A stretch of 17,063 nucleotides of DNA from Candidatus Eiseniibacteriota bacterium (GTDB taxonomy: Bacteria; Arandabacterota; Arandabacteria; Arandabacterales; Arandabacteraceae), in contig JBDRNT010000026.1 in the NCBI GenBank assembly GCA_043810925.1, positions 1-17,063 on the forward strand. The letters are read 5' to 3'. The notes under the pieces are model-generated. The model saw only the letters and a list, made by a program, of their open reading frames with translations. It did no database searches and was not told the DNA's origin. The position numbers were made by a program, and so were the translations under genes. Shown here in pieces: positions 301-16,156 of this stretch (within the stretch, counting starts at the first letter, position 1; each line of letters starts with the position of its first letter).

Positions 301-363
301 ATGAGGGAATTCGCGGTCCTGCTGGCTATCCTGATAATGGGGGCGCAATACCACATAGAGTAG
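301..363 (+). pseudogene. 5' stub of a secreted/membrane protein gene, apparently interrupted by the recombinase end
   Basis: GGAGG 8 nt before ATG. Translates MREFAVLLAILIMGAQYHIE*: signal-peptide-like n/h region, then a stop inside the antisense tail of the recombinase ORF. Not in the ORF track. Confidence 0.45.
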
Positions 364-943
364 TCTCTCTGGGGGGGAAGGTGCTCGGGATTGCGCCCCT
401 GATTTTCACTTTCCTCCCCTCGATGACAATCTCAGTAACGAGGAGGTTGACTAACTCTCGTCTAGCTTCAAAATCGTCCTGGATGGCTTTCAGCCCTTTA
501 GCGACCTTGCTACAAACCTGCTTGACTGAATCGGGGTGGGGATCGCCCGTCTTCTGGTTTTCCAGCTGGCCTAACAGGTCACTCCGTCGGTTCTCAAGGT
601 GCTGCGTTTTCGCTCTGATCTTGTTGTTCTTAGCCTTTAGCTGGTCAAGCGTTATGACCTTGGCGGTATATGCATCAAGCAACCTGTCTTCCTCTTCGCC
701 AACCTTAGCTATGGCTTTGTCAGTTGACTTGATCTCTTGAAGAAGCCCGTCCGCAGTCGATCTGGTTCTTTCCCTCAGCGAGTCGACGTGCTTGGCAATG
801 AGATTTGGGTTCCTGATTGCCTCAGTCAGCTTATCCCAGACAGCGGACTCCAGCTGGTCTGCCCGGGCACAACTGGCATGGCAGTTCTTGGGGAGGGGGT
901 ATCTTCGGAGCCGGTTGCTGCATCGGTAAACCGACCTTGACAT
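326..943 (-). pseudogene. Large serine recombinase, C-terminal fragment (second half of zinc ribbon plus coiled coil)
   Basis: YRC...C...ADQLESAVWDKL...NP, a long coiled coil with RLLDAY, and ending RRELVNLLVTEIVI...IRGAIP, as in large serine recombinase C-termini. The catalytic resolvase domain, the recombinase domain and the first CxxC are absent. Confidence 0.8.
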
Positions 944-989
944 TAGGCTGAGCTGCCTCACACTTGGGGAAAGTACCCCACTCACCTCC

Positions 990-1017
990 CCCCCCCCAGT
1001 GCGATCTACATTAGTTT
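990..1017 (-). repeat. Inverted repeat of 3554-3581 (partial copy 1 of the non-coding element)
   Basis: Reverse complement AAACTAATGTAGATCGCACTGGGGGGGG vs AAAGTAATGTAGATCGCACTAGGGGGGG at 3554-3581: 26/28 identical with a 16-nt perfect core. Confidence 0.85.
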
Positions 1018-1093
1018 TGGGTTCCTCGGACTCCGGGGGTTACGCCTGCTATGAGGGCGGGAATTGCAGACTGTCCTTGGGACTTGAAGAGCC

Positions 1094-1588
1094 TTATGAG
1101 CCGAGCATTATGATGTTCGTGAAGTAGCTGTCTGTCGGCTTGGCAACACACTTAACAGACTTCTTGCAACGACTTGTGTAAACGGTGATCTTGCCCGGAA
1201 GAGAACCGTCGTCTTGGAACTTGTATTGAGACCTATCGAGGCACCAGTATCCATATATCTTGCTTATTGCCCCATCCCCGAGCTTCATAGGGTATGTGTT
1301 CTCTGTCGCGTCTTTCATTGGGTGGAGACTATCGGCCTCTGCCTTGCCCCAGAAAACCTTATCGATCTCAACCCCCTGCCCCCGGATATGGCTGACGGTC
1401 AACCACGCTTCAATATGGAATTCGGTGCCCTGATCACTCGCGTAGCTAATCTCGCATTCATCCACCACTAGCGCCAGCTTGGGCCGCCTAGTAATTACCA
1501 TATCAACAAGTCTCCATACAGCAGCCAGACCACCACCCGCCGCTACAATCAATAAGGCCCACCGCACGTTCTCCCAATCAAAACCCAT
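1094..1588 (-). CDS. Hypothetical protein, N-terminal membrane anchor plus beta-rich soluble domain (164 aa)
   Basis: GAGGAGG RBS 6 nt before the ATG at 1588 (better than the track start at 1648). Hydrophobic WALLIVAAGGGLAAVW followed by RRPKL. Confidence 0.7.
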   Translation of the reverse strand: MGFDWENVRWALLIVAAGGGLAAVWRLVDMVITRRPKLALVVDECEISYASDQGTEFHIEAWLTVSHIRGQGVEIDKVFWGKAEADSLHPMKDATENTYPMKLGDGAISKIYGYWCLDRSQYKFQDDGSLPGKITVYTSRCKKSVKCVAKPTDSYFTNIIMLGS

Positions 1589-1669
1589 TTTGGTCCTCCT
1601 CGATGTAGGATACGGACAATCGCAACAGAAACACCGTGACTGTAGCATCGAAAAGGAGCCACATCAAAC

Positions 1670-1777
1670 CTATTTGCGGGTCTCAAGGTCACGCAGTCTC
1701 CTAGATAGCCAACCTAAAGCTATAAAGCTGGCCCATTGGCCTATGATTACTAACGCCAAACAGATTGTTTCAAACAT
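1670..1777 (-). CDS. Small single-pass membrane peptide (35 aa)
   Basis: AAAGGAG 8 nt before ATG. MFETICLALVIIGQWASFIALGWLSRRLRDLETRK*. Sits between co-oriented genes and is below the ORF-track cut-off. Confidence 0.6.
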   Translation of the reverse strand: MFETICLALVIIGQWASFIALGWLSRRLRDLETRK

Positions 1778-1797
1778 CCTACTTTCTCCTTTTCAGA

Positions 1798-2070
1798 TTA
1801 GGACACTACCCAGCGGTGTCGAGGTCTGCCAATGGTAGGCCTTGCTCTTCCGATGTAGCTCTTCAACCTCTCCGCTGTGACTGGCAGAAAGGGAGGCAAC
1901 GGATTCTTGACCAGGTACCAAGTGTCACTTTTCTTACTCCGTCGAGCACCACGCTTCTTAGCAGCCACCCAATCGCCACCGTCAGAAATCTGACAGTGTC
2001 CATTAACCGACTGTTTCTCGAAAGAAAACCTCCAACCCGACCTCTGATACCTAATCCCTGCGTTTGTCAA
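1798..2070 (-). CDS. Basic hypothetical protein, WYLVKNPLPPFL family copy A (start uncertain, possibly 5'-degraded)
   Basis: Shares HC..IS...W..KK..ARR..K.D.WYLVKNPLPPFL.V..E with 3116-3463, with mostly synonymous DNA differences in the core. TTG start lacks a clear RBS. Confidence 0.55.
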   Translation of the reverse strand: MTNAGIRYQRSGWRFSFEKQSVNGHCQISDGGDWVAAKKRGARRSKKSDTWYLVKNPLPPFLPVTAERLKSYIGRARPTIGRPRHRWVVS

Positions 2071-2138
2071 TAAACCACGGCAAATCCCTTGATCGATTAC
2101 CTCAGAATCGATTCTGGTAAGGGGGTGATACCCCTAAT

Positions 2139-2243
2139 GGTGTTCGCGGGCACGGCTGGGTAGCTTCAAATACTGCTATGGGGGTGGCAGGACTTTCCCC
2201 TTGGCGTTCCAGGAATAGTGTGAGCAACACTTGTAGGGGTACC
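2139..2243. repeat. Conserved ~105-bp non-coding element, copy 2
   Basis: Ungapped alignment to 3481-3585, 69/105 identical by hand count. Mismatches are spread over all three codon positions (10/14/12). Confidence 0.75.
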
Positions 2244-2280
2244 GCTCAGCCCCAGCCGTGTTGAAAATATGGTTATTTGC

Positions 2281-2310
2281 TTGACTTTTTTGTGTTCTTT
2301 GCTCTATAAT
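2281..2310 (+). promoter_or_regulatory. sigma70 promoter for 2357-3064
   Basis: TTGACT (2281-2286), 18-nt spacer, TATAAT (2305-2310). RBS AAGGAGGT at 2343-2350. Confidence 0.7.
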
Positions 2311-2356
2311 ACCGATTGGTCTTTATGAAAAGACCTGCGAGAAAGGAGGTGTGCGA

Positions 2357-3064
2357 ATGTCTTATCGTTATAGTCTGGCTGCTGTCGTATTAACTCTTTC
2401 GCTGTGCTTCTTCAGCATGCCAGCAGAAGCTGCCGAGTGGGAGTTCCACGATGGCCTGAACGCCTTCGCGAACAACCCCGATAGGGTTACGGTATACGGT
2501 ACCATCGACTGCGTAATCCAAGAGCCACCGCTCTATCAAGGCTGGATCGAGTATTGCGAGACTGTGACCGGTTGTGTGCCCCCGTGGTGCAACGACTACA
2601 TTGTCATCTTTCAATGGGCCCCCAACGATCCTGAGACCTGCGGAAATGTGGATACGTGGAAGGTTGCGGTTCCTGGGGGTATTCCAGGTGACTGGCTGCT
2701 AGAACCTCTGGCCCAGTGGGTGGATTCCTATGTTCCAGCTGAGGGTGTGCAGCTGCCGACCATCGGTGATGCAACGGGCGCCTACCAGTATATATATGTG
2801 ATCGTTGATCTGGAGGAGTACCTGGCGTCCTATCCGGTGACCTTGCTGGAGGTGTATTCAATAAGCAATGGGGAAAGTCCGGACCTGCCGGGATACTTGA
2901 TCGGAACCACACCGATTGTGTTTGATCCAGCAGGCGTGGAACCCTTCTCCACAACGCCGTTCACCGGAGACCTTTGGATTGATGGGGATGTGTGGTTCTG
3001 GCCGGGTGGCGCATCGGCGACTGAGCCTTCAACCTGGGGCAGAGTCAAGAATATGTATCGGTAG
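2357..3064 (+). CDS. Secreted hypothetical protein with C-terminal TWGxxKxxY motif
   Basis: AAGGAGGT 6 nt before ATG 2357. Sec signal ending AEA-A, acidic Cys/Trp/Pro-rich body, ends ATEPSTWGRVKNMYR. Has its own promoter and terminator. Confidence 0.85.
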   Translation: MSYRYSLAAVVLTLSLCFFSMPAEAAEWEFHDGLNAFANNPDRVTVYGTIDCVIQEPPLYQGWIEYCETVTGCVPPWCNDYIVIFQWAPNDPETCGNVDTWKVAVPGGIPGDWLLEPLAQWVDSYVPAEGVQLPTIGDATGAYQYIYVIVDLEEYLASYPVTLLEVYSISNGESPDLPGYLIGTTPIVFDPAGVEPFSTTPFTGDLWIDGDVWFWPGGASATEPSTWGRVKNMYR

Positions 3065-3086
3065 TGTATGTCAGCAGGTGTATTCT

Positions 3087-3117
3087 GAGGGGTGCCGCCT
3101 GGCACCCCTCTCTTCTT
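3087..3117 (+). terminator. Intrinsic terminator between convergent genes (possibly bidirectional)
   Basis: GAGGGGTGCC-gcct-GGCACCCCTC, a perfect 10-bp stem followed by TCTTCTT. Confidence 0.75.
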
Positions 3118-3463
3118 ATCTCCACCGGCTCCCATGCAGGTACTGCCACCCATTCTCGGGACTGACCGACAAGAACGGTGGAAGTGGGTTCTTGACGAGG
3201 TACCACTTGTCATCTTTCCTCCTCCGTCGAGCCTTCTTAGACCAAACCTCGTAACTTATTACCGTACAATGACTTAGAGCAACAACCCCATTTGCTCTAA
3301 GTTCTTCAATATCAACGAGTTCCAAACAATAACCCTCTGGGACAGGTGTTCGGCTATTAGCCGTCGGTTTCCGCAGGTGGTCGTATGCCTTTTCTCTCCG
3401 CTCTCGGCGTACTTTCCGGCGACGTTCTCTCAGGCTGGTCAGACGATCAGATATGTCTTGCAC
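3116..3463 (-). CDS. Basic hypothetical protein, WYLVKNPLPPFL family copy B (115 aa)
   Basis: AAAGGAG 10 nt before GTG 3463. Arg/Lys-rich (RERRRKVRRERREK; KKARRRRK). Paralogous to 1798-2070. Confidence 0.7.
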   Translation of the reverse strand: MQDISDRLTSLRERRRKVRRERREKAYDHLRKPTANSRTPVPEGYCLELVDIEELRANGVVALSHCTVISYEVWSKKARRRRKDDKWYLVKNPLPPFLSVSPENGWQYLHGSRWR

Positions 3464-3480
3464 AGTGGAATCACTCCTTT

Positions 3481-3585
3481 GGTGCTCGCGCACGCGGTAG
3501 GGTAGCTAGTAAAGCAGCTACGGGGGGGGCTGGGACTTGCCCTTGGGGTTTCCAAAGTAATGTAGATCGCACTAGGGGGGGTACA
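3481..3585. repeat. Conserved ~105-bp non-coding element, copy 3
   Basis: Direct-orientation match to 2139-2243. Its 3554-3581 part is an inverted match to 990-1017. Confidence 0.75.
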
Positions 3586-3620
3586 TTCTCATGGGAGGGT
3601 AGTCACCAGTTCAAACTCAA

Positions 3621-4265
3621 ATGAGGGTGTATTGTGCTCCAATTGTCCTGGTATTGACCACTCCGGCACTGGCACAGGATAAGACCCTGTTGGGAGAAGA
3701 GATCGAGAGTGGGGGCTACGGCGCGCCGGTAGTCAAGTTTGGACGGATCCTTGGCGGAGACGGCGTCTTCGTGGGCGGACAGGGCGGGTGGATCATCAAT
3801 CATGCCTTTGTGTTGGGAGGCGGTGGTTACGGCCTTGCTAACAGGATCTCAGTGAATGGCAGTGATTGTCCATATCTCGGATTCGGCTATGGCGGCCTGC
3901 TGTTGGAGTACATTATCTCGCCCAGGGAACTGGTGCATGGCAGCGTCCAGCGCCTGATAGGCGCGGGCGGCGTCAGCTATTCGGAAGAATGGCGGTGCAA
4001 TGACGCCTATTCCTATGAAAGCGATGCGTTCTTCGCTCTCGAGCCGGCGGCGCATCTGATGCTTAACCTCCACAAGAAAGTGAGAGCGGGAATCGGTGCA
4101 TCCTATAGATACGTGAACGGAGTGCAATTCGAGGAACTGAGCGATTCCGACTTGAGCGGCGCCACGGCTCAGATCATCGTCAAGTTCGGGGTTTTCTATA
4201 CTGTCCTCCGGCCTGAGGGCATTCGACCAAGACGTGATGAATGTCACTCGGGCCACCTCTGTTAA
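3621..4265 (+). CDS. Outer-membrane beta-barrel protein (hypothetical)
   Basis: Signal peptide ending PALA-Q. Gly/aromatic alternating strands (GGYGAP, FVGGQGGWIINH, FGYGGLLLEY, GIGASYRYV). KFGVF terminal-strand-like motif followed by a 22-aa tail. Confidence 0.75.
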   Translation: MRVYCAPIVLVLTTPALAQDKTLLGEEIESGGYGAPVVKFGRILGGDGVFVGGQGGWIINHAFVLGGGGYGLANRISVNGSDCPYLGFGYGGLLLEYIISPRELVHGSVQRLIGAGGVSYSEEWRCNDAYSYESDAFFALEPAAHLMLNLHKKVRAGIGASYRYVNGVQFEELSDSDLSGATAQIIVKFGVFYTVLRPEGIRPRRDECHSGHLC

Positions 4266-7340: not shown

Positions 7341-10300
7341 TCACTCCACCCGCACCTTGAATTTGATCTCGAAGGTTGGGAAATTCCCTCCACTTGCCGC
7401 GTCAAATGTTCCTTTGGGATTAATCCGTATGTGCGTCACATTGGTGTCGCACCCTTCCGCGTCGGGTTCGGGAACATAGGTATAAGTGCCGCCCCCATCG
7501 TTGGAAAACGCCACATCGTCCGCCGGGCTGTCGAGGCTGATGAAGGTGTAGGTGAGCCCGCTCGGGATGGCGCCGTCGATGAATTGAACAGGGCCGGTAG
7601 CAGGTCCGGGGCCGTCGATGTCGCCCACGAAGAGGGCCGTGTTTGCCGGGATCTGGTCAGTTATAACGACGGTGTCGGCATCGGTGGCGCCGTAACCCTG
7701 GTTGGTAGCGGCCACGGTATAGATCATCACGGCGCCGGGAATCGCCTTGGGGTTGGTCTCGTCATTATAGGGATCTGAGAAGGTCTGGACCGACTTGAGC
7801 AAGATGATGTCCGGCAAGAGCTCGAACCAGTCGATGGTGTTGCCGCTGTCAATAGAATAGCTCGGGTTGATCGGTTTCCGCGAGGCATCGGAGCCGGAGG
7901 CATCGGAGTCCTTCACATCCACGTATGAGATATCCTTTATTGCCCCTGCGTTCACCGTGAAATTCCATCGAGTACCTTCACTCGAAGAACGGAGGTTCAG
8001 GAGGTTTCCGTCGGTGCCCTCAAGCGTGACTGTGCCCGCGATGCTCTGCGTGGAGCCGGCTTCAAAGGTGAGGGTGTCGGCAGCGGTGACCGTCTTGGTC
8101 AGATGGTTGAAGTCCGTCGTACCGGAGACTCCCTGACCGGTCCCATCCAGGATAACGGTTCCGGAGTTGTGGCTGAAGGTTCCGCCGGAGTGGGTAAAAT
8201 CCCCCGCCACGCTCATGGCCCCGCTGGTGGCCGTGAAGCTGCCGCCGCTCAGGGTGAGGGTGCCGTTGATATCGATCACCCCCGCGCCACCGGTAAAGGT
8301 GCCGAGATTTTTCATGTTCGGGGTAGTCACATCCCCGCCGGGAGCAAAGCTGTAGCCGATGGGAACAAATAGTTCGGTACCCGGCCCGGTGACGTTCAGA
8401 TTCGTTCCGCCGGACACCGAATAGAGAATATCGCTGTCCGCTGAGCCCCCCTTTGCACTCGCCATGTTTGCAGTGGAAAGCGTTCCACCGTTATCGTGAC
8501 GGGTGATGCAATGAGCAGCATAGATATCCATGTCGTTAATGACGGTGCCGTTAGAGACGGTGACGGTAGCTCCCCGGTAGGTGGCGTCACCGTCGATATA
8601 TGCCAGGAGATTGTCTCCTGCGGCGGTCGGGACGACCATGAACCAATAGCCATCCTGATCCGTGATATCCGTGTCTGCAAGCGACCCGTTGACCAGGAGC
8701 GCGACGGTCTTCCCGATACCGGCGGAGGTTGCGCCTTCATCAAGAAACACGGTTCCCCCGATCGTGAACGTGCCGACAGTGTCGATTGTCTCGCCCTCGC
8801 CGGTGTCGGCGTCATAGAGGGTCCGGTCGTAGTAGTCGAGGTATATTGTATCCTTGGGTTTTGCCAGGTCGCCTCTATCATAAGAGGTCAGCGACGTCAG
8901 GATGGAAGTGCCGCCCGTAAAGGAGCCCAGGTCGCTGTAGGGTAGTTGAACCTCGACGAAGGTGTCCGTATTCCACGGCCCGGTGCCTGTGCCGACACAG
9001 TAGTCCTCGGGAGTTGTGTAGATCTCGCTCGAGGTCTGATTGCCGCATCCGTATGGAAGAGTGTTGTCACAGGTGAACAGTTCCACCTCGGAGCCGTCGT
9101 TCTTTAAGAGTGTCGTCGTGAGGGCGAAGTTGATGTTGCCGTCGAGGTCCGTGTCGATGAGCACCGCGGCGCTGGACTTGTCCGGTGATATGTCATCGAA
9201 ACCGAAGAGGAGGTAGAAGGTGTCACTCAGGTTGCTCGCGACACCGAAGCGTGTAATGTCGTATTTCGGTGGGCTGGTCCAGTCATCCGGCCCCCCGTTG
9301 TCATCGATGACGAACTCGGTGCCGTCCCCGTCGGTCCAGTCGGAAAAGTCACAGTCGGCCCCGATGTCATTCCCTTCAATAACAGGCCTGGCTCCGGAGA
9401 ACTCGGACGTATTGTCATTCGGATCAGTCGCCGTGGTCGTGATGACCTGGCCCACCGGCACTGACGTCAGGAACGTGAAACTCTGATCCCCGCTACCGTC
9501 AGTTATGATGGTAGTCGATCCCAGGTATGTTTGCCCCTCACCGTAGCCCGAGGGATCTTCCGCAGGGCTGGCGAAGAATTCGATGCGGAAGGTGGTGGCG
9601 GCGGCGCTGTTGAGGCCGCCCTCGACGGTCGTCACCCCTTCCAAGGTGGTCGCCGAGGTCAGAACCGGAAAGTTCTGGAGGTTGTTGGGCCCAGTGTCGG
9701 CGTCGCCGGTGTCGTTTGCGGTGACGCCGTCATCATCCAGGTCGATGCCAAGTTCGGTGTTAGCACTGATTGAATTCCGGAGGATCTTATTCCCGGTGCC
9801 GGCCGTTGAGACCAGGGATACACCATCCCGAAGATTGTTTGCGATAAGGTTTCCGACCCCGCCTGCCGTTCCGCCGATGCTATTGTTCGCAGCTGAGAGA
9901 GATATAAACACTCCGTTATGACCATTGCCGAGTGCTCCGCTTCCGGTCATGTCTGTGCCAAGATAATTCCCTTCTATCACGTTGCTATCAGTCCCGGGAT
10001 CCTTAATCACCACACCATCCCAGCCGTTCCCGGAGATCACGTTCCGGTCTGCAGCGGTTGTCCCCCCAATCAGATTATTGCTGGAGCCATTCCGCATGAT
10101 TATGCCTGCCAGGCTGTTCCCCTGATCAATCAAACCGGTGACATCGGTGCCGATGTAGTTGCCGGCAACGGTGTTGCCTCCACCGATACTGATGTCAATG
10201 CCGTCCTTGCTGAAGCGGTTAATTACGAGCCCGCGGATGGTGGAAGCTCCCGCCTTTATTGTCAGGCCGTCAGCGCCGGCGCCGGCACTGGCGCCGTCCA

Positions 10301-11936
10301 GTTCGATCTCCGGGCCGTTGGAATTGGTATCTCCGTTATTGACCGTCTGGGTGGTGCCGTCAATGATCGTTCCGCCGGTCGCATCGCTAATGGCGGGTAG
10401 CGCTGCAACAGGCGCGATGGAGGCAACTGCGTTAAAACCGGGCAGAGGAGTGGGGACTCTGATGCGGAATTGACTGGAGTTCGCCGTGGTTCCGCCGGCC
10501 GTACCGATGGCGTTGGCGTTCTTAATGAACTGCCGGAGACTCCCCTGCTTGCTGCGCACATTATCGGCGTTGATGTCGTCATCAGTATTAACGATCAGGT
10601 TGTAGGCAAAGCCCAGATTGACATCGCTCACGTCGGCACCGCTCACCGTGACGCTGACATAGGTATCCCCCGGCCCGAGGTTGTCTCCGGTAGCGGTATC
10701 ATCCACCGTGGCGCTCTGGCCGCCATACAGGGCAGACCCGTTCCCCCAGGTCATCTCCGGCAGGGGATAAGGCCACGTCCCCGGTACACTGGCGTTCAGG
10801 CCGCCCCTGGGCAGGGTGCCGGCATCGCCTATAGTGGATGAACGCACGCGCACTTTATACGTCAGGTTGGGAAGACCGGTGAATGTGAAGATGCCATTCG
10901 CGGCAGTGTTCACCGAAGTGATGTATCCATTGCTATTATTGTAAAGTTCCACATCGACATTGGCCAGGCCGATGTCGCTGGTGCCACCGTCATAGTCGGA
11001 AGCCGTTCCGGCGAAGTTGGCGTCCTCAAAGATCCGGCCGGAGATGCTCGACCCTGCTGCACCGCTACCACCATCACTGGTTTTGATAATCGTCCCAGCA
11101 CCGCCAACCGCATACTCGTTCCACGGATCCAGAAAGGACACGCCGTTAAGGTCTTTTATCGTTCCAGGGGACTGCGGATTCCACGTAGAGCCGCCATCGG
11201 TTGTTTTCAAAATCGTGCCATTCCTTCCAACGGCATACCCCGTCGACGCATCCAAGAAGTACGTCCCTCTCAAGTCTTGGAACGTTCCGGAGAACCGCGG
11301 ATTCCAGGTAGACCCGCCATCGGTTGTCTTTACAATAGTGCCAATCCCTCCAACAGCGTACCCCGTCGACATATCCACGAAGTACGTCCCTCTCAATTCT
11401 TGGAATGTTCCGGAGAACTGCGGATTCCAGGTAGACCCGCCATTGATTGTTTTCAAAATGATGCCATTCCTTCCAACGGCATACCCGGTCGACGCATCCA
11501 AGAAGTAGACGCTGAGCAATTCTAGGAACGTTCCGGAAGTCTGCGGATTCCAGGTAGACCCGCCATCGGTTGTCTTTACAATGGTGCCAATCCCTCCAAC
11601 AGCATACCCCGTCGACATATCCACGAAGAATGTCCCACTCAAGTCTGGGAACGTTCCGGAGGTCTGCAGATTCCAGGTAGACCCGCCATCGGTTGTCTTT
11701 AGAATGGTCCCAGACTGGCCAACAGCATACCCCGTCGATATATCCACGAAGCACGTCCCTCTCAAGTCTACTAACGTGCCGGAGGTCTGCTGGGTCCAGC
11801 CGGCCCACGCCCTTGACACCGAGACAGCGCTTGCCAGGAAAAGTGACAAGAGAAGACAGACAACGACGGTCAACTGAGACTGAGCCCTCAGGATAGAACC
11901 GCTGCTTTGCTTTCCTGATTCATCCATTCGTGCCAC
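7341..11936 (-). CDS. Large secreted adhesin-like protein: BNR/Ycf48-type propeller, SdrD-B-like domain, parallel beta-helix, C-terminal DUF11-like domain
   Basis: Signal peptide ending AWA. Six TxDGGSTW Asp-box repeats; ISGRIFED...GLANVDVELY; GSLRQFIKNAN; GNYIGTD/NVISGN beta-helix; DADTGPNNLQNFP; C-terminal PKAIPGAVMIYTV...VITDQIP...FKVRVE. Confidence 0.88.
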   Translation of the reverse strand: MARMDESGKQSSGSILRAQSQLTVVVCLLLSLFLASAVSVSRAWAGWTQQTSGTLVDLRGTCFVDISTGYAVGQSGTILKTTDGGSTWNLQTSGTFPDLSGTFFVDMSTGYAVGGIGTIVKTTDGGSTWNPQTSGTFLELLSVYFLDASTGYAVGRNGIILKTINGGSTWNPQFSGTFQELRGTYFVDMSTGYAVGGIGTIVKTTDGGSTWNPRFSGTFQDLRGTYFLDASTGYAVGRNGTILKTTDGGSTWNPQSPGTIKDLNGVSFLDPWNEYAVGGAGTIIKTSDGGSGAAGSSISGRIFEDANFAGTASDYDGGTSDIGLANVDVELYNNSNGYITSVNTAANGIFTFTGLPNLTYKVRVRSSTIGDAGTLPRGGLNASVPGTWPYPLPEMTWGNGSALYGGQSATVDDTATGDNLGPGDTYVSVTVSGADVSDVNLGFAYNLIVNTDDDINADNVRSKQGSLRQFIKNANAIGTAGGTTANSSQFRIRVPTPLPGFNAVASIAPVAALPAISDATGGTIIDGTTQTVNNGDTNSNGPEIELDGASAGAGADGLTIKAGASTIRGLVINRFSKDGIDISIGGGNTVAGNYIGTDVTGLIDQGNSLAGIIMRNGSSNNLIGGTTAADRNVISGNGWDGVVIKDPGTDSNVIEGNYLGTDMTGSGALGNGHNGVFISLSAANNSIGGTAGGVGNLIANNLRDGVSLVSTAGTGNKILRNSISANTELGIDLDDDGVTANDTGDADTGPNNLQNFPVLTSATTLEGVTTVEGGLNSAAATTFRIEFFASPAEDPSGYGEGQTYLGSTTIITDGSGDQSFTFLTSVPVGQVITTTATDPNDNTSEFSGARPVIEGNDIGADCDFSDWTDGDGTEFVIDDNGGPDDWTSPPKYDITRFGVASNLSDTFYLLFGFDDISPDKSSAAVLIDTDLDGNINFALTTTLLKNDGSEVELFTCDNTLPYGCGNQTSSEIYTTPEDYCVGTGTGPWNTDTFVEVQLPYSDLGSFTGGTSILTSLTSYDRGDLAKPKDTIYLDYYDRTLYDADTGEGETIDTVGTFTIGGTVFLDEGATSAGIGKTVALLVNGSLADTDITDQDGYWFMVVPTAAGDNLLAYIDGDATYRGATVTVSNGTVINDMDIYAAHCITRHDNGGTLSTANMASAKGGSADSDILYSVSGGTNLNVTGPGTELFVPIGYSFAPGGDVTTPNMKNLGTFTGGAGVIDINGTLTLSGGSFTATSGAMSVAGDFTHSGGTFSHNSGTVILDGTGQGVSGTTDFNHLTKTVTAADTLTFEAGSTQSIAGTVTLEGTDGNLLNLRSSSEGTRWNFTVNAGAIKDISYVDVKDSDASGSDASRKPINPSYSIDSGNTIDWFELLPDIILLKSVQTFSDPYNDETNPKAIPGAVMIYTVAATNQGYGATDADTVVITDQIPANTALFVGDIDGPGPATGPVQFIDGAIPSGLTYTFISLDSPADDVAFSNDGGGTYTYVPEPDAEGCDTNVTHIRINPKGTFDAASGGNFPTFEIKFKVRVE
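11061..11798 (-). repeat. Six tandem 123-bp (41-aa) coding repeats
   Basis: ATTCCA(G/C)GTAGA recurs at 11178, 11301, 11424, 11547 and 11670, exactly 123 bp apart. Confidence 0.95.
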
Positions 11937-15088: not shown

Positions 15089-16090
15089 TCACAAGGAATG
15101 TCTTACGCCTTGCGAGCCCTGGCCGGGTCCGGTATTGCCCGTCACCAGCCGGCGATCGTGGACCTCTTCCAGAGGTGAGCCTGGCTTACTCATTCGCAGT
15201 GCTGCCAGGTACAGATAGCGGCGCAGCAGTGGCCGCCCACGCTTGGTTATCCGTGTCTTGCCCTTGAAAGTGCCGGAAGACTTAGTGTGCAGGTTAAGTC
15301 CTGCCAACTTGATCACAGCATCTGCGTTCCGGTACTGGGGCAGGTGACCTGTCTATCCCAGGATCGTCGCCACTGTCACCACACCCATCTGCGGTATGCT
15401 CAAGATATGCTCAGCATAAGGAATCCGTAGCAAGACTTGCTCTTGGGCTGCCTCAACCTCTCTAATACGACCTTCCACCACCTCCCCCGCCGAGGGATAT
15501 TTGGCCATCAGCCGGCGGATTGAAGCACAGCCCACATCATATAGGATGATATTCAACTCAGGAAACACCAGATCAACCAGGCCCTTGTAGCGGTTCATGA
15601 TTCTGGTTCGCTCCACTGATAACCGCTCCCTAAGCTTGCCCAGGCGTCTCAGATCAGCATACACCCCGCGCGGGATCATCACCTCTCTACCCCTGCCCTG
15701 GGCAGCAAGGTCCGAGATAATCCTCGAGTCCTTACTGTCATTCTTCTCTGGAGAATTGTCCTCGAGTTCCTTTGCTCTCTTGGTATGGGCAGGATTCATG
15801 CCGACCACTGAATAGCTACCTCGGGTAAGAAAGTGCATCGATGCATGCCCATAATGACCGGATGACTCTATGGCAAAGAGCATCGACCCTAAGCCCGAAC
15901 TCGCTCTCACGGATTCGGCTCTGGCCAGGAGCTTCTCGAACCCGCGGCGATCGTTGGAAAAGCTGAAGGCCTTTGTCTTGGTGCCGTCGGGCCGGCGAAT
16001 AGTGGCCACATGACGCCGTTTTGCCACATCAATCCCGACCACCAAAATCTCCGGCTTGATTACCTGTCCCAGGTCTGCTCTACTATACAT
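15089..16090 (-). mobile_element. IS110-family transposase pseudogene
   Basis: AAGGAGG before ATG 16090. DEDD motifs GIDVAK, IESSGHY, KNDSKD. The in-frame TAG at 15353-15355 reads through as ILG*TGHL...KLAGLNL..KSSG.FKG..RITKRGRPLLR. Apparent internal deletion after YPSAGEV and loss of the C-terminus after ~15140. Confidence 0.9.
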
Positions 16091-16156
16091 AGGTTGCCTC
16101 CTTGCTAATTGAGCCAAAGAATTGCACTTCTTAGACTCAACAGCTTGGGGCAACCT
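16091..16156 (-). promoter_or_regulatory. Long RBS-sequestering hairpin upstream of the IS110 transposase
   Basis: mRNA pairings AGGUUGCC/GGCAACCU, CC/GG, GCUG/UAGC, UUGAG/CUCAA, AAGAA/UUCUU. The 3' arm contains AAGGAGG and ends right before AUG. Confidence 0.75.

Follow-up and report, generated by a model that had tools for sequence, protein, structure and literature searches.

A twice-occurring small basic gene and its conserved spacer, probably the integrase-proximal block of serine-recombinase elements in an Arandabacterota genome

An island in a host secreted-protein gene

We analysed a 17,063-nt stretch of DNA (hereafter the window), which is an entire contig (JBDRNT010000026.1; C26) of a 3.85-Mb metagenome-assembled genome (GCA_043810925.1; G000) affiliated with the Arandabacterota phylum. 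The main subject is a module that occurs twice near the start of the window and consists each time of a gene for a small basic protein on the minus strand (open reading frames (ORFs) A and B, hereafter copies A and B) and a conserved stretch upstream of it. A first-pass annotation had read the module either as a minimal mobile or regulatory unit, made of the protein and its cognate site or RNA, or as the conserved end of integrative elements. Both copies lie in an island of 3317 nt (334–3650, minus strand), which also carries a fragment of a large serine recombinase (LSR) gene at one end and a detached 3′ tail of an integrase gene at the other. The G+C content of the island is 52.4%, compared with 57.2% for the remaining window.

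The island separates two parts of a secreted-protein gene of the host on the plus strand. The displaced 5′ part (198–333) contains a sigma-70-like promoter (TTGACG at 198 and GATACT at 221), a Shine–Dalgarno (SD) sequence, an ATG at 301 and the first 11 codons, and ends in the 5-nt core TCCTG (329–333). The same core recurs at the other junction (3646–3650), directly before the remainder of the gene (3651–4265). These limits follow from an alignment with genome G010, which carries the host gene uninterrupted: it is 75% identical over 557 nt from 3646, where the homology stops, and the homology resumes at ∼121–312 of the window, a span that includes the promoter, SD sequence and start codon. 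The host side, when rejoined by a script, encodes a normal, G010-like signal peptide. In addition, one contig from public sequencing run X1 joins position 328 to 3646 and skips 3317 nt, with five letters that fit both sides and 9 differing letters in 265; its joint coincides exactly with the independently predicted junction. Five sequencing runs contained parts of the window, in small shares (0.05–0.09), and the parts left uncovered carry no meaning. A precise insertion relative to an uninterrupted site is thus indicated by (i) the G010 alignment, (ii) the X1 contig and (iii) the rebuilt signal peptide, and we read 334–3650 as an insertion into the signal-peptide codons of the host gene.

The insertion also explains the start of the plus-strand gene that was called at 3621. 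This is indeed a secreted-protein gene, and belongs to the host, but its first codons are a chimera created by the insertion. The antisense strand of the detached integrase tail gives the truncated host gene an ATG and a hydrophobic start, both in the window (3621–3650, plus strand) and in a locus of genome G002 (C14, 2814–2882, plus strand), which leads ORF callers to predict a seemingly ‘complete’ but chimeric secreted protein in each case.

A paralogous host promoter, start codon and attB-like region, 75–77% identical, is found in two other contigs of the same genome (C18, 1–450; C59, 1–480), where the paralogue is truncated after 26–40 codons. In C59, an additional 1.28 kb, absent from C18, contains an IS110-type transposase gene, and the region looks like a second hotspot for mobile DNA.

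An integrase gene split at its predicted attachment site

The LSR gene fragment (326–940, minus strand) matches residues 351–537 of a 573-aa LSR in genome G002 (C55) with an E value of 1.3e-34. What remains is part of the zinc ribbon together with the coiled coil and the C-terminal strands; the frame crosses the left junction and terminates in host DNA (326–328). The Zn_ribbon_recom family of Pfam matches it at E 1.4e-4, below the family cut-off, and the reference LSR contains the Resolvase, Recombinase and Zn_ribbon_recom domains. The ‘serine recombinase’ previously placed at 326–985 is only a C-terminal fragment: 205 aa are left, the first ∼350 codons are missing and the catalytic domain is absent. 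The island is consequently no longer mobile by itself.

The missing end of this gene lies at the opposite junction. The detached tail (3589–3650, minus strand) consists of 19 sense codons after the core and a TGA at 3589–3591, and the segment also bears one arm of the putative attachment site of the element (attP) together with the core TCCTG. When the element side is rejoined by a script, it yields a single open integrase frame, which continues for 19 codons beyond the core up to the TGA and ends in FEFEL..P, as in intact homologues. The same holds for two contigs of G002, i.e. C53, with the integrase body followed by host flank, and C14, with host flank followed by the tail and by D12 methylase, ParB-like and terminase genes. 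These contigs have a common 13-nt core, and rebuilding them yields an open host frame (262/304 codons) and an integrase frame with the conserved tail. In the window and in the G002 pair alike, the integrase frame crosses the junction and joining restores the tail. The G002 prophage is apparently intact, and C55 represents a phage 91.5% identical to it, with an unsplit LSR gene and phage genes on both sides.

The two attP arms form an inverted repeat around the shared core, with 16 of 22 positions symmetric around a central CT, and lie ∼60 nt before the integrase stop codon. In our reading of the sequence, the codons for the conserved IA(S) and RNT residues coincide with these arms (TATTGCG/CGCAATA). 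Among the 20 closest LSR homologues, four end in ..ERNT..FE[FWY]EL..P and 16 diverge directly after a conserved IAST; the pair P0017 and P0018 gives a clean view of this break. We conclude that the clade keeps its predicted attachment site inside its own integrase gene.

Two further observations concern this region. Six split integrases from different sources (P0019, P0021, P0026, P0029, P0030 and P0034) have similar substitute C-termini (..CGH.Q.P.LP..F-like), which suggests that they occupy one conserved host target. A 151-nt contig from run X2 covers the integrase tail (3580–3650 of the window) up to the core and continues with 80 unlike letters, the first 10 of which equal 334–343, i.e. 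the other attP arm; the remainder differs, and the contig may come from a relative with another integrase 3′ region.

A family of small basic proteins

Copy B (3116–3463, minus strand) encodes 115 aa from a GTG at 3463 that is preceded by an SD sequence (AAGGAG, 3474–3479). It is apparently intact and has a basic N-terminal helix and the motifs HC..ISY..W and WYLV.NP..PFL.V. Copy A (1798–2070, minus strand) encodes 90 aa from a TTG without an SD sequence, lacks a middle segment that is present in its closest relative (P0004) and looks decayed. The segment 2071–2243, which the first-pass annotation had counted with ORF A, contains no open frame.

The described duplication of a basic protein with an alignable upstream element stands. 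Both modules are present, and the 12-residue core WYLVKNPLPPFL is identical in the two copies (1885–1920 and 3170–3205), with codon differences mainly at third positions. A search of the own genome with ORF B returned copy A at E 3.4e-8 (56% identity over 45 aa) and nothing else beyond ORF B itself; the resemblance of the two copies is far above chance. Substitution counts are dS 1.68 and dN 0.60 for B versus A (75 codons), and dS 0.64 and dN 0.245 (ratio 0.38, 115 codons) for B versus its nearest relative (L011), which fits an old divergence under purifying selection and agrees with the former view of selection on the protein instead of a recent copy. The neighbouring plus-strand genes are unrelated to each other, as had been noted (BLASTP E 1.1). 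Copy A is 62% identical to P0004 over 73 aa (E 4e-23), with a common unusual C-terminus; since it is nearer to P0004 than to copy B, the two copies come from two subfamilies and not from a local duplication.

Relatives of the protein are few. One relative emerged from a word-indexed search of 5.8 billion proteins, and an exhaustive profile search of 1.84 billion representatives gave 14 hits, of which 12 are true relatives and two, both repeat proteins (ankyrin and PAS), were set aside on inspection as spurious. The eight relatives that we looked up are singletons on contigs of 863–6511 nt and are unnamed or called ‘hypothetical protein’. The 12 true relatives, dN/dS values of 0.3–0.4 and the SD sequence of copy B establish that the small protein is real and under selection.

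Domain searches do not place the family. Pfam, NCBIfam and PHROGs contain no family that matches ORFs A and B, apart from two PHROG rows without an assigned function at E 0.02–0.03, and Pfam gave only chance rows, each in a single member, for all 14 family members. Neither the WYL domain (PF13280) nor an excisionase-type helix-turn-helix matches any of the 14 members (E up to 1) or ORFs A and B (E up to 0.1); the letters W-Y-L in the protein are a coincidence of spelling. The structure prediction and fold search recommended in the first-pass annotation led to no fold assignment. The AF2 model of ORF B has a middling confidence (mean pLDDT 67.5), the ESM Atlas gave no usable match, Foldseek found no match to the model in PDB at E up to 0.001, and VIA-align against 48,161 chains reached a best Z of 2.5, from which no fold can be assigned.

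The conserved spacer

The stretches upstream of the two copies (2080–2262 and 3464–3588) align over ∼110 nt. Comparison with related loci (i.e. L011, L012, G011:C31 and the own-genome contigs C18 and C110) divides the upstream region, on the strand of the ORFs, into three parts: (1) an outer stretch, ∼60–95 nt long, that lies further upstream, (2) a run of C that precedes AGTGCGATCTACATTA and (3) a core that starts with AACCCCAAGGGCAAG and ends at the SD sequence. Other genomes of the family also contain part (1), which in G002:C55 forms the 3′ terminus of the intact LSR gene (573 aa). Parts (2) and (3) therefore form the spacer that separates the stop codon of the integrase from the gene behind it. 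Searches of genome_contigs and viral_contigs returned no related loci.

In copy B, the spacer (3464–3588, minus strand; the ‘element’ of the first-pass annotation) comprises motif (2) at 3554–3588, with AGTGCGATCTACATTA at 3558–3573 after the C run, and core (3) at 3464–3553, with AACCCCAAGGGCAAG at 3536–3550. In copy A, the spacer (2071–2262, minus strand) comprises core (3) at 2119–2210 and a weak motif (2) at 2211–2262; its SD sequence is degenerate and the upstream integrase tail is absent.

Core (3) is kept in all eight aligned loci. It precedes the gene in each of the five homologues for which upstream DNA could be read (B, A, L011, L012 and G011:C31), so that the retention of the upstream element by homologues, on which the first-pass annotation had staked its proposal, is borne out. 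The integrase tail upstream of these five is clear in three, has diverged in L011 and is lacking in A. No small gene is detected beside core (3) in G000:C18, G008:C168 and G012:C106; in the last of these, an unsplit integrase end is followed by the spacer and then by an IS3-type insertion. In the G002 phages, part (2) is present only in a loose form and the gene that follows encodes a methylase. Cargo neighbours vary among the related loci and include a Schlafen/AlbA_2 protein (L012), a DUF3800 protein (L011) and an Eco57I-like methylase (G011).

The spacer is rich in C (31–39% in seven of the eight sequences and 29% in copy A), and its conservation lies in primary sequence, namely an AAC.CCA.GG block and a CGCGA block. 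These features suggest a control region acting at the level of DNA or of a leader, which would carry expression signals or an operator of the small gene. Several candidate identities were rejected: (i) an ECF or sigma-54 promoter, because the spacing does not fit; (ii) a Bacteroidetes-type −7 box, which suits some copies only; (iii) the end of a group II intron (GTGCG start), for which there is no Rfam match; and (iv) a tRNA-like T-arm in the integrase tail, which was dropped.

Motif (2) also occurs as stand-alone copies (C run + AG[TC]GCGATCTACATTAGTTTTGGGTT) in the window (990–1017, plus strand) and in G000:C18 (491–522 and 1858–1892, plus strand). The window copy is inverted and abuts the truncated integrase. 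The copies in C18 are in direct orientation on either side of a secreted-protein gene, and the first of them ends at the −35 box of a TTGAGT-17-TATAAT promoter.

Interpretation of the repeated module

These results make it likely that the repeated module is the integrase-proximal block of a family of LSR integrative elements. In the free circle, as rebuilt from the sequence, the order would be integrase gene, stop codon, ∼125-nt conserved spacer and small basic gene. Since attP lies within the 3′ end of the integrase gene, integration would cut the gene, leave most of it at one end of the island and move its final 19 codons, along with the spacer and small gene, to the far end, separated from the gene body. 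Copy B at the right junction would then be this displaced end, and copy A an internal relic of a second subfamily. Of the two earlier readings, the ‘conserved end of integrative elements’ is thus the one that the data favour: the spacer comes after the stop codon of the integrase, and copy B is placed exactly at an insertion junction.

The small protein would then assist the integration module, as a recombination directionality factor or as a DNA-binding regulator. Its place behind the integrase gene, small size and basic charge fit both roles alike, and its position next to the integrase module is what speaks for a directionality factor. A directionality factor of an LSR is defined by binding to the integrase, at its second DNA-binding domain or coiled coil, and by promoting attL × attR while suppressing attP × attB recombination; SprB of SPbeta and Orf7 of TP901-1 are small examples. 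We give the two roles equal and rather modest chances, and leave the remainder to some other function. A complex prediction for the integrase fragment and ORF B (score 0.01, mark 0.32) has no bearing either way.

The alternative that survives best takes the spacer as a DNA-level control region and the small protein as a regulator of the element's transcription (repressor or activator) instead of a recombination factor. Many mobile elements place a regulator beside the integrase, and a small basic protein encoded by the first gene behind an unstructured, sequence-conserved spacer would suit this role. However, no helix-turn-helix, ribbon-helix-helix or other DNA-binding family is detected in the protein, the spacer has no obvious repeated operator half-sites and no promoter is detected in it. 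We regard this as a possible explanation, though clearly not the leading one.

A structured non-coding RNA (e.g. a leader, riboswitch or small RNA) that controls or partners the small protein is unlikely. The stretch is kept in all eight loci on the sense strand upstream of the SD sequence, and the copy B spacer folds somewhat better than shuffled sequences (z −2.75; 3 of 200 shuffles are equally good). Against this, the other single folds are unremarkable (z −1.66 for copy A; −0.57 and −1.46 for the antisense strands), the RNAalifold consensus of the eight sequences has three pairs at −0.76 kcal/mol, a Rfam scan of the whole window gave 0 matches at E up to 1, and what is conserved is the primary sequence of the two blocks named above.

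An autonomous minimal unit, in which the protein travels or works jointly with its upstream site or RNA and needs no integrase, would account for the joint occurrence of spacer and gene in all five readable loci, for the tail-less spacer of copy A and for the stand-alone copies of motif (2). Yet no domain resembling that of a transposase or nuclease is present in the protein, and neither copy is bordered by repeats or target duplications of its own. Copy B is located at the LSR junction, and the genome contains just two copies. The spacer is also found without the gene (G000:C18, G008 and G012), and its first part stands ahead of a different gene in the G002 phage. Together with the lack of a conserved RNA fold and of an Rfam match, this tells against the minimal unit proposed in the first-pass annotation, which we consider very improbable. 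That host DNA was duplicated locally in tandem and then drifted, without a mobile element, has a negligible chance: the copies share one orientation and lie 1.3 kb apart, but their dS is near saturation, copy A is nearer to a metagenomic protein (P0004) than to copy B, and the whole block is absent from the empty site.

Some findings weigh against an integrase-proximal block. The window integrase is fragmentary, and no single contig combines the spacer with both an integrase and a small gene that are intact. Copy A has neither tail nor junction, and its origin is unexplained, as are the lone and inverted copies of motif (2). In the G002 phage, a methylase gene follows the integrase, so the small gene is not a constant component of the module, and profile and structure searches gave no domain or fold match for its product. 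A scan of the spacer for sigma-70-like promoters found none. Finally, the X1 contig, found at an 85% threshold, has only 28 nt on one side of the joint and is therefore weak on its own.

In a more far-reaching reading, the small protein could represent a new family of directionality factors, or a state-dependent regulator, for a clade of serine integrases with attP in their own gene, and the element would sense its own state. We regard this as rather improbable. Sensing could work in two ways: (i) the conserved 19-residue integrase tail would be present only in the circular element and (ii) the small gene would be on the integrase transcript only in the circle and would be cut off after integration. 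The conserved C-rich spacer could be the control point.

Other contents of the island and of the window

A foreign block (945–1023, plus strand), 97% identical to G000:C18:1858–1892, replaces the 5′ two thirds of the integrase gene and contains the inverted motif (2) copy at 990–1017. The arms 990–1017 and 3554–3581 are 93% complementary; an integron attC array or invertible segment was considered for this 28-nt inverted repeat and rejected, as flipping puts no gene behind a promoter.

Two further genes are probable cargo. A 184-aa orphan ORF with an N-terminal membrane segment (1094–1648, minus strand) has no match in Pfam, PHROGs or NCBIfam and occurs in one of 18 genomes of the phylum, i.e. 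its own. Gene Y (2281–3064, plus strand), which encodes a secreted protein of 237 aa, has its own TTGACT-18-TATAAT promoter (2281–2310, 11 of 12 matches) and a full-length relative only in G016 (41% identity); elsewhere, just its C-terminal ∼60 aa match, in several otherwise unrelated proteins. Secreted proteins with the terminal or near-terminal motif ..TWG[RG][VI]K..[YF].. are encoded in the window (3040–3064), in G000:C18 (∼1750–1781) and in G002:C14 (∼3440–3470), and this motif may be a C-terminal sorting signal of the phylum. A G+C-rich, terminator-like hairpin (3087–3110; 10 pairs, 8 of them G–C) lies between the convergent gene Y and ORF B. Since copy A is internal, tail-less, decayed and of another subfamily, the island is a composite of at least two related elements.

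In the rest of the window, an IS110-family transposase gene (15089–16153, minus strand; DEDD_Tnp_IS110, E 9.4e-32) extends across two adjacent frames and is probably frameshifted. A 1531-aa surface protein (7341–11936, minus strand) has, near its N-terminus, five tandem 123-nt (41-aa) repeats (11068–11859) with mutual identities of 62–79%. A tRNA/tmRNA scan of the window found none.

Relation to known systems and significance

In Streptomyces phage R4, attP may overlap the sre gene. Our literature searches found no direct description of a serine integrase with attP inside its own gene besides that of Dehalococcoides. There, the 3′ end of dsiB, the serine recombinase gene of ssrA islands, always overlaps attL, and it is proposed that the gene may be whole only in the circular form (McMurdie et al. 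2011, PMC3146451). The Dehalococcoides islands resemble the present elements in (i) an LSR gene whose 3′ end overlaps the att junction and (ii) an integration module accompanied by ParB and DNA-modification genes, as in the G002 phage (PMC3146451). By contrast, their target is a tmRNA gene instead of the signal-peptide codons of a protein gene, and the C-terminal part of DsiB is described there as divergent, whereas the tail detached here is conserved (FEFEL..P) and restores the frame (PMC3146451). No small basic gene of the present family is reported for these islands (PMC3146451).

Two other systems are comparable in part. The ‘suicidal’ archaeal tyrosine integrases of the SSV type have attP within the reading frame, as here, and integration splits the gene; they differ in being tyrosine integrases of archaea and in that the gene is disrupted, whereas only the last 19 codons would be exchanged here (PMC7253208). 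In the integration-dependent immunity of mycobacteriophages BPs and Brujita, attP is reported to lie in the 3′ end of a phage gene, and integrated and free forms encode different C-termini, as predicted in the present case (PMC4557955, PMC3694055). The gene concerned there is the repressor gene and the integrase is a tyrosine recombinase (PMC4557955, PMC3694055).

LSR directionality factors are small accessory proteins of the same element with no common sequence or fold (PMC12286644). The 115-aa protein is likewise small and encoded by the same element as the integrase, a likeness of size and place, and since these factors share no fold, the missing match is no argument against a directionality-factor role (PMC12286644).

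In brief, the split-integrase layout is of a known, little-studied kind, to which the small protein family and the spacer belong as members not described before. An unexplained repeat of a ‘protein plus cis element’ becomes ordinary mobile-element anatomy, and a clade of serine integrases from uncultured bacteria now has precisely located junctions, an uninterrupted site and a reconstructed attB/attP pair. In public data, most members are in the split state (16 of the 20 closest), and gene calls from integrated copies give the wrong C-terminus, which is relevant to the mining of serine integrases as genome-engineering tools. The unannotated 115-aa family offers a testable candidate for an integrase accessory protein.

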